In this document: positions 1 through 332 of the stretch, in pieces
How the letters are laid out: each line of letters opens with the position of its first letter
Position numbering within the stretch: position 1 is the stretch's first letter
DNA from: Escherichia coli
GTDB lineage: Bacteria > Pseudomonadota > Gammaproteobacteria > Enterobacterales > Enterobacteriaceae
DNA length: 332 nucleotides
Assembly: GCF_003334335.1 (NCBI RefSeq)
Contig: NZ_QOWQ01000218.1
Direction: 5' to 3' (one strand)
Notes under the pieces: model-generated
Told to the model about the DNA's origin: nothing
Seen by the model: the letters and a program-made list of their open reading frames with translations, nothing else
Database searches by the model: none
Translations under genes and position numbers: made by a program

Positions 1-332
1 GAAGAGCACGCCATTGTCCAGGTGGAAGAAATGCAGGCGGTGAATGCCGTGCTGTATGGCAAATACACCATGGAAGGAGACCAGTTCGAGAAAATTGAGG
101 TTGATTTTGGCAGATCGACGAAGAATAACATCATACAGGGTAGCGGTAAGGAGTGGTCAAAACAGGACCGTGACACGTTCGACCCGACATATGATATCGA
201 CCTTTTCTGTGATCAGGCCAGCGGTCTTGTGAATATTGCCATCATGGACGGTACCGTCTGGCGTCTGCTGAATGGCTTTAAGCTGTTCCGCGAAAAACTG
301 GATACCCGTCGCGGCTCAAATTCACAACTCGA
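1..332 (+). CDS. Phage major capsid protein, lambda gpE-like (Phage_cap_E family); internal fragment, truncated at both ends by the window
   Basis: Seen in sequence: frame +1 is open across all 110 complete codons with no stop. Third codon positions are mostly G/C and Leu is mainly CTG, as in enterobacterial coding DNA. Established knowledge: the translation aligns without gaps to the middle portion of lambda gpE as I recall it, with matching blocks QVEEMQAV, GKYTM, EWSK, DP, ASG, VNI and a near-identical EKLDTRRGSNS(E/Q)L block at the C-terminal end of the window. Inference: the full gene should extend several hundred bp beyond both window edges. The gene symbol is left blank because this is a homolog, not lambda E itself. 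Confidence 0.9.

Follow-up and report, generated by a model that had tools for sequence, protein, structure and literature searches.

Coding content of the window

The window, meaning the whole stretch of 332 bases analysed here (G+C 49.7%), lies entirely within the coding sequence of a capsid gene. On the + strand, frame +1 runs through 110 codons without a stop while each of the other five frames has one to nine stops, and among 20,000 mononucleotide shuffles just 45 kept frame +1 fully open. In both Escherichia phage PhiR5_1 and E. coli STEC17-183, the window begins at offset 354, in phase 0, of a 1029-nt capsid gene of 342 codons, and contains codons 119-228 and the first two nucleotides of codon 229. 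The features are listed below by window coordinates, with residues numbered as in the full-length protein and structural elements taken from a predicted model.

1 to 332, + strand: interior part of a gene for a major capsid protein of the lambda E / phage 21 gene 7 family, from the open frame, the position in the gene, the Pfam, PHROG, and PDB matches, and the annotation at 100% matches
1 to 57, + strand: residues 119-137, predicted C-terminal half of a long helix, 104-137 (AlphaFold2 model, block pLDDT 70-87)
44 to 232, + strand: 62-codon open reading frame in frame +2, the sole other one of at least 20 aa, inside the capsid frame and judged spurious
61 to 135, + strand: residues 139-163, three predicted strands (139-144, 147-153, and 161-163) after the putative spine helix (model)
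103 to 114, + strand: family-conserved VDFGR motif (D153, G155, R156; 13-sequence alignment)
154 to 156, + strand: codon of W170, invariant in the 13 aligned family members
184 to 297, + strand: residues 180-217, predicted helix 180-188, strand 197-200, and helices 202-209 and 212-217 (model, block pLDDT 93-95)

The frame +2 open reading frame at 44 to 232 is the only complete one that the open reading frame list reported, because the true frame overruns both ends of the window. Compared with the gene of phage 21, the window has 24 nucleotide differences, of which 2, 3, and 19 fall at the first, second, and third codon positions; the differing codons include 19 that are synonymous and 4 that are non-synonymous. 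With 19 of the 24 differences at third positions, the pattern fits purifying selection on frame +1. Third positions are again the most variable in the comparison with lambda (34, 29, and 53 differences by codon position).

Capsid family and closest relatives

The frame +1 translation of 110 residues matches Pfam Phage_cap_E (PF03864) over model positions 114-216 of 329 (i-E 4e-14, 52.8 bits), while the full-length gene containing the window matches positions 1-329 of the 329 (4.8e-66, 223.5 bits). The translation also matches PHROG 2353, 6020, and 29, each labelled “major head protein” (1.4e-54, 6.8e-46, and 1.2e-37), and the solved lambda gpE chains 7sj5_A and 7vi9_A (1.3e-38), where query residues 1-110 align with chain residues 119-228 without a gap. 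The next structure by sequence is 3bqw, a capsid protein encoded by a prophage of E. coli CFT073 (3.6e-24). Against NCBIfam, the capsid, decoration, and FI proteins gave no families, which is uninformative since no models for them exist there; Pfam and PHROG do cover them. The preliminary description, made from the letters of the window, had read it as part of a gpE-like major capsid gene and had proposed a search of the 110-residue translation against Phage_cap_E and phage databases; the open frame and the highly significant lambda E-family matches from that search bear the reading out.

Among described genes, the nearest to this one is phage 21 gene 7 and not lambda E itself, which refines the earlier label. 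The phage 21 product, gp7 (M81255, “Bacteriophage 21 head gene operon”, “7: major capsid protein”), likewise has 342 residues and is 96.2% identical overall, with 13 substitutions in the whole protein. Within the window, 106 of the 110 residues are the same and nucleotide identity is 92.7%; the four substitutions, written from the window to phage 21, are I163T, Y182H, F187Y, and Q190L. The neighbouring genes of phage 21 are also alike, with terminase genes 1 and 2, gene 3, the portal gene, the protease-scaffold gene, and shp upstream and ORF1/FI and gene 8/FII downstream, but the early regions of the prophages that carry the window differ from that of phage 21. Lambda gpE (NP_040587; PDB 7vi9, 7vii, 7sj5, and 8k39) shares the Phage_cap_E family, the HK97 fold, and the order of the head operon, and aligns colinearly over its full length with a single one-residue gap, but only 208 of 341 residues are identical (61.0%) and identity in the window is just 61% for residues and 64.8% for nucleotides. 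By sequence, then, the precise label is that of a phage 21-type member of the lambda E family. The major capsid protein E of PhiR5_1 (PV340545.1, XSB41322.1) is the same allele, with a window that is 100% identical and an identical protein; over the whole capsid gene, PhiR5_1 and STEC17-183 differ by one nucleotide. The identical protein also occurs in E. coli EC2 and W24, and the three chromosomes (STEC17-183, EC2, and W24) carry it as RefSeq WP_000522645.1.

Taken as a whole, the window is almost certainly an internal piece of the major capsid gene of a temperate lambda-like siphophage with a phage 21-type head module. The carrier may be a free phage or a prophage integrated in an E. coli chromosome, with the latter more likely. 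Everything here is known already, from the gene and its family, fold, and neighbours to its mosaic distribution, and the finding is an ordinary one.

Predicted structure

An AlphaFold2 model of the full-length protein was built from the alignment of 13 family members. The model is moderate overall (mean pLDDT 71, pTM 0.73), and in the residues of the window the mean pLDDT of ten-residue blocks ranges from 64 to 95 and is mostly at least 81. In a fold search, the best match to the model is lambda gpE (7sj5_A; TM 0.84, E 3.5e-40, 60% identity), followed by 3bqw (TM 0.82) and then by the capsid proteins of YSD1, Chi, P23-45, and HK97. The predicted fold is that of HK97, which is defined by a spine helix, an E-loop, and P and A domains. 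The putative capsid protein 3bqw and the capsid proteins of YSD1 and Chi (6xgp and 8vji; TM 0.63-0.70) share both fold and family with the modelled protein, but their identity is 22-45% and they belong to separate phage lineages with other genome architectures.

Helix 104-137 of the model may be taken as the spine helix from the general topology of the HK97 fold (PMC5701804), and the window would then begin midway along it. In the VDFGR motif, D153 and R156 never vary across the 13 sequences, and G155 almost never does. Residues 180-217, by the same general topology, probably belong to the axial (A) domain; this segment holds the invariant D183 and three of the four differences from phage 21 (Y182H, F187Y, and Q190L), with I163T lying outside it. 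The clustering of three of four substitutions in the putative A domain and the wide distribution of the allele are the basis for a further reading, that these substitutions might alter stability, the fit of the decoration protein, or recognition by capsid-sensing defences and so explain the spread of the allele among prophages whose early regions differ, an Stx2a phage among them; we regard this as very improbable.

Gene order and distribution

Four contexts with the identical 332 bases were read, namely PhiR5_1, STEC17-183, EC2, and W24, a sample that lies apart from the flanks of the window itself. All four have the same head gene order: small and large terminase (Nu1/A), W, portal B, an S49 protease with a nested scaffold (C/Nu3), a D-type decoration protein, capsid E, FI, and FII. 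After FII, each continues with the tail genes Z, U, V, G, T, H, M, L, K, I, and J and the tail-fibre genes. Lambda and phage 21 themselves have the identical head gene order. The gene directly upstream of the capsid gene encodes a protein of 115 aa that has a match at 1.4e-23 to HDPD, the Pfam family of lambda head decoration protein D, and is annotated as a head decoration protein in all four contexts. SppA/S49 models recognise the protease, and FII scores above the curated cutoff of NCBIfam tail_join_FII (NF049848). This decoration-capsid pair extends beyond the lambdoid phages. Among ten distant homologues with 24-58% capsid identity, from phi80 and from Vibrio, Aeromonas, Erythrobacter, Pseudomonas, Ruegeria, Achromobacter, and Rhodobacter phages (mostly Casjensviridae), a gene annotated as decoration protein lies directly upstream in nine, and the pair seems to be a conserved unit across the whole Phage_cap_E family.

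Of 5,426 complete E. coli genomes searched with megablast, 1,567 have a match; the matching places number 2,318, at most five per genome, and all but six of them are chromosomal (2,312), the six being on plasmids. Identity is at least 99% in 39 records and 100% in at least 16 complete E. coli chromosomes, and in all 20 of the matches listed the annotation over the matching region is “major capsid protein.” In the phage collection, PhiR5_1 is 100% identical over the window. Phage 21 and the lambdoid phages 4A7, ev017, D2, 1W, 3W, PhiR63_2, and PhiR57_1 are 92.5-93.1% identical to it, and the PhiR12 phage set is 87% identical. Lambda is missing from the megablast matches because it is too diverged, at the nucleotide identity given above for direct comparison over the window. 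From the window alone, the preliminary description had predicted a D-like gene just upstream and head-completion genes downstream, had placed the window in the structural head module of a tailed phage or prophage, and had assigned it to mobile accessory rather than core DNA. The predicted neighbours are exactly those seen in all four contexts (SHP/D, FI, and FII), where the full morphogenesis module is present; the accessory assignment agrees with the share of genomes that match, the copy number of up to five per genome, and the differing chromosomal sites.

Some differences occur among the four contexts. The DUF1327 gene in the interval between holin and lysozyme is full length in PhiR5_1 (636 nt, 9558-10193) and is an annotated, C-terminally truncated pseudogene in STEC17-183 (10470-10715), EC2 (10637-10882), and W24 (10027-10275; piece coordinates). 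Tape-measure gene H is annotated as two coding sequences in PhiR5_1 (24011-26344 and 26344-26583) and as one in STEC17-183 (24011-26584), which suggests a frameshift or a sequencing error in one of the records. The tape-measure gene of EC2 is 51 nt shorter.

Prophage state

The STEC17-183 element covers about 49 kb, at approximately 43.8-92.9 kb of its record. Its left boundary is formed by an integrase and an excisionase adjoining rspB (7767-9333, left-end piece) and its right one by a truncated ydfJ (38113-39396, head-region piece), and in between it has modules for recombination, immunity, replication, RusA, Q, lysis (holin, lysozyme, and Rz), head, and tail. An integrase and excisionase, lysis genes, a late operon, and a disrupted chromosomal site are thus all present, as in a lambdoid prophage, and from its gene content the element looks like a complete one with a few pseudogenes. 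Its cargo includes dicB (12157-12345) and relB/relE (13264-13743) in the left-end piece and hokD (2065-2220) in the head-region piece. The ydfJ/rspB locus together with dicB, relBE, and hokD are what we take to be the site and cargo of the defective Qin prophage of E. coli K-12, and the STEC17-183 prophage looks like a complete relative of Qin of about 49 kb. PhiR5_1 has been deposited as a complete phage genome of 50,981 bp with E. coli C as host; particle formation by PhiR5_1 is inferred solely from that record of a complete genome with a host.

Many lambdoid prophages of E. coli are defective, and the copy from which the window derives could lie in a decayed, non-inducible prophage remnant or be a pseudogene, in either case a relic without current function. 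The large number of matching places, with up to five in a genome, is in keeping with such a relic, as are the few pseudogenes in the chromosomal prophages sampled, namely a truncated DUF1327 gene in three and, in EC2, a frameshifted gene for tail assembly protein I. Decay of this kind is nevertheless unlikely for the window, which is itself in frame and intact: each of the four contexts has a full-length capsid gene and a complete head module, one of those contexts is a deposited phage genome, and the codon-position pattern shows purifying selection.

Other signals within the capsid frame

The capsid gene could also carry a second, overlaid function in the form of the small frame +2 open reading frame, an antisense transcript, or a structured RNA. 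Such an overlay is very improbable. The 62-codon frame does exist and stays open in phage 21, but its length is not kept, as the corresponding open stretch is 46 codons in lambda and 85 in phi80, and the nucleotide differences gather at the third positions of frame +1 and not at those of frame +2. For structured RNA, an Rfam scan of both strands at a permissive E-value gave one chance-level lncRNA match (E 0.7; 15.3 bits, where the gathering score is 80). A repeat search of the window found no direct repeats and a single weak inverted repeat of 16 nt, which was dismissed as chance, its arms being 75% complementary and 173 nt apart. Within the window, no second gene, RNA family, or meaningful repeat is overlaid on the capsid frame.

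That the HK97 fold here serves something other than a phage (a cf-PICI, a gene transfer agent, or an encapsulin-like compartment) is scarcely credible, since the capsid of cf-PICI EcCI2 and a Vibrio satellite-associated capsid do appear among the distant fold matches (ranks 21, 30, 35, and 47), but at 8-13% identity and TM 0.28-0.47 against the 60% and 0.84 of lambda gpE, and all identical or near-identical copies examined are in full-size lambdoid phages or prophages with their own terminase, portal, and tail genes.

An observation on lambda concerns the opposite strand of the same codons. Antisense frame -1 opposite codons 119-228 of gene E (lambda 6489-6818, reverse strand) is free of stops for all 110 codons. 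The frame is not open in the window, phage 21, or phi80, and its openness in lambda is probably due to chance.

Assembly by analogy with lambda and phage 21

With the window read as part of a phage 21-type capsid gene, a role for its product can be proposed. The reading frame, family, predicted fold, neighbourhood, and purifying selection were demonstrated in the present analysis, while assembly, geometry, and decoration are carried over from those of phage 21 and lambda. As a homologue of lambda gpE, the protein of 342 aa would adopt the HK97 fold and co-assemble on the portal into a procapsid, aided by the product of the upstream S49 protease/scaffold gene. The procapsid would expand as a cos-type terminase packages DNA, and the expanded shell would be cemented at its three-fold sites by trimers of SHP, the gpD homologue encoded directly upstream. 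A T=7 shell with decoration trimers at the three-fold sites would be expected from lambda and phage 21 (PMC5701804, PMC7602432). The N-termini of the lambda decoration protein add a strand to a sheet formed by the E-loop and N-arm of the capsid protein (PMC5701804). SHP of phage 21 is a homologue of gpD with 49% identity, binds the three-fold sites, and is trimeric in solution (PMC7602432). The decoration partner of lambda gpE is gpD, whereas the partner here is of the SHP type.

Mosaicism and cargo of the carrier prophages

Modular exchange has long been described for lambdoid phages, and the mosaicism of the head module seen here is of this known kind. In a recent analysis, head genes were found to be co-transferred as a module (PMC9836094). 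The late region from head to tail is colinear in the four contexts, and STEC17-183 and PhiR5_1 align in it as a single block of 19 kb at 97.4% identity. The early regions differ: that of STEC17-183 has the Qin-like dicB/relBE/hokD genes, while that of EC2 has a DEAD/DEAH-box helicase and a protein with a primase-helicase zinc-binding domain. Identity within the head operon is patchy. Between W24 and STEC17-183 it is 98.6-99.6% across the capsid gene but 91.6% in a stretch of 500 nt that runs from the last part of the protease/scaffold gene through most of the decoration gene.

The prophage of W24 (NZ_CP141591.1) carries the genes for the A and B subunits of stx2a (4731-6313) just downstream of an Ile/Arg/Arg tRNA cluster, and also has Q and a lysis cassette, the capsid gene at 19647-20675, and an integrase at 35977-37074 adjoining dusA (piece coordinates). 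Because the identical capsid protein and the colinear head and tail module occur in this stx2a prophage, the allele WP_000522645.1 is also used by a long-tailed Stx2a-converting prophage. The occurrence of one capsid allele in prophages with different cargo and integration sites means that the 332-base fragment cannot identify a prophage or a strain, and it is no marker for toxin carriage. Its value is for annotation only, as an assignment of the window to the late (head) operon in a lambdoid prophage of phage 21 type and hence to mobile accessory DNA of E. coli.

A sharper discontinuity is seen at the start of the late region. The small-terminase gene and the region upstream of it are unrelated between STEC17-183 and PhiR5_1 (a 549-nt gene, 13483-14031) on the one hand and EC2 and W24 (510 nt, 13522-14031) on the other. 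Across the cos region and small terminase, at about 13050-14093, in-register identity is approximately 49%, rising to 95-100% in the head operon beyond 14093. The alignment places a breakpoint near the junction of the small and large terminase genes. This position recalls the swap in packaging specificity between lambda and phage 21, which involves cosB and the N-terminus of Nu1.

STEC17-183 shares with W24 the methyltransferase gene and the Ile/Arg/Arg tRNA cluster that precede stx2 in the latter. At the position corresponding to stx (6608-7534, head-region piece), STEC17-183 has about 0.93 kb with no annotated gene or convincing open reading frame, the longest being one of 118 aa on the reverse strand that is rich in arginine and proline. 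Unannotated DNA of PhiR5_1 and the PhiR12 phages matches about half of this segment, and DNA of Stx1 phages matches about 44% of it. The segment looks like a toxin-less version of the ‘moron’ locus at the late promoter.
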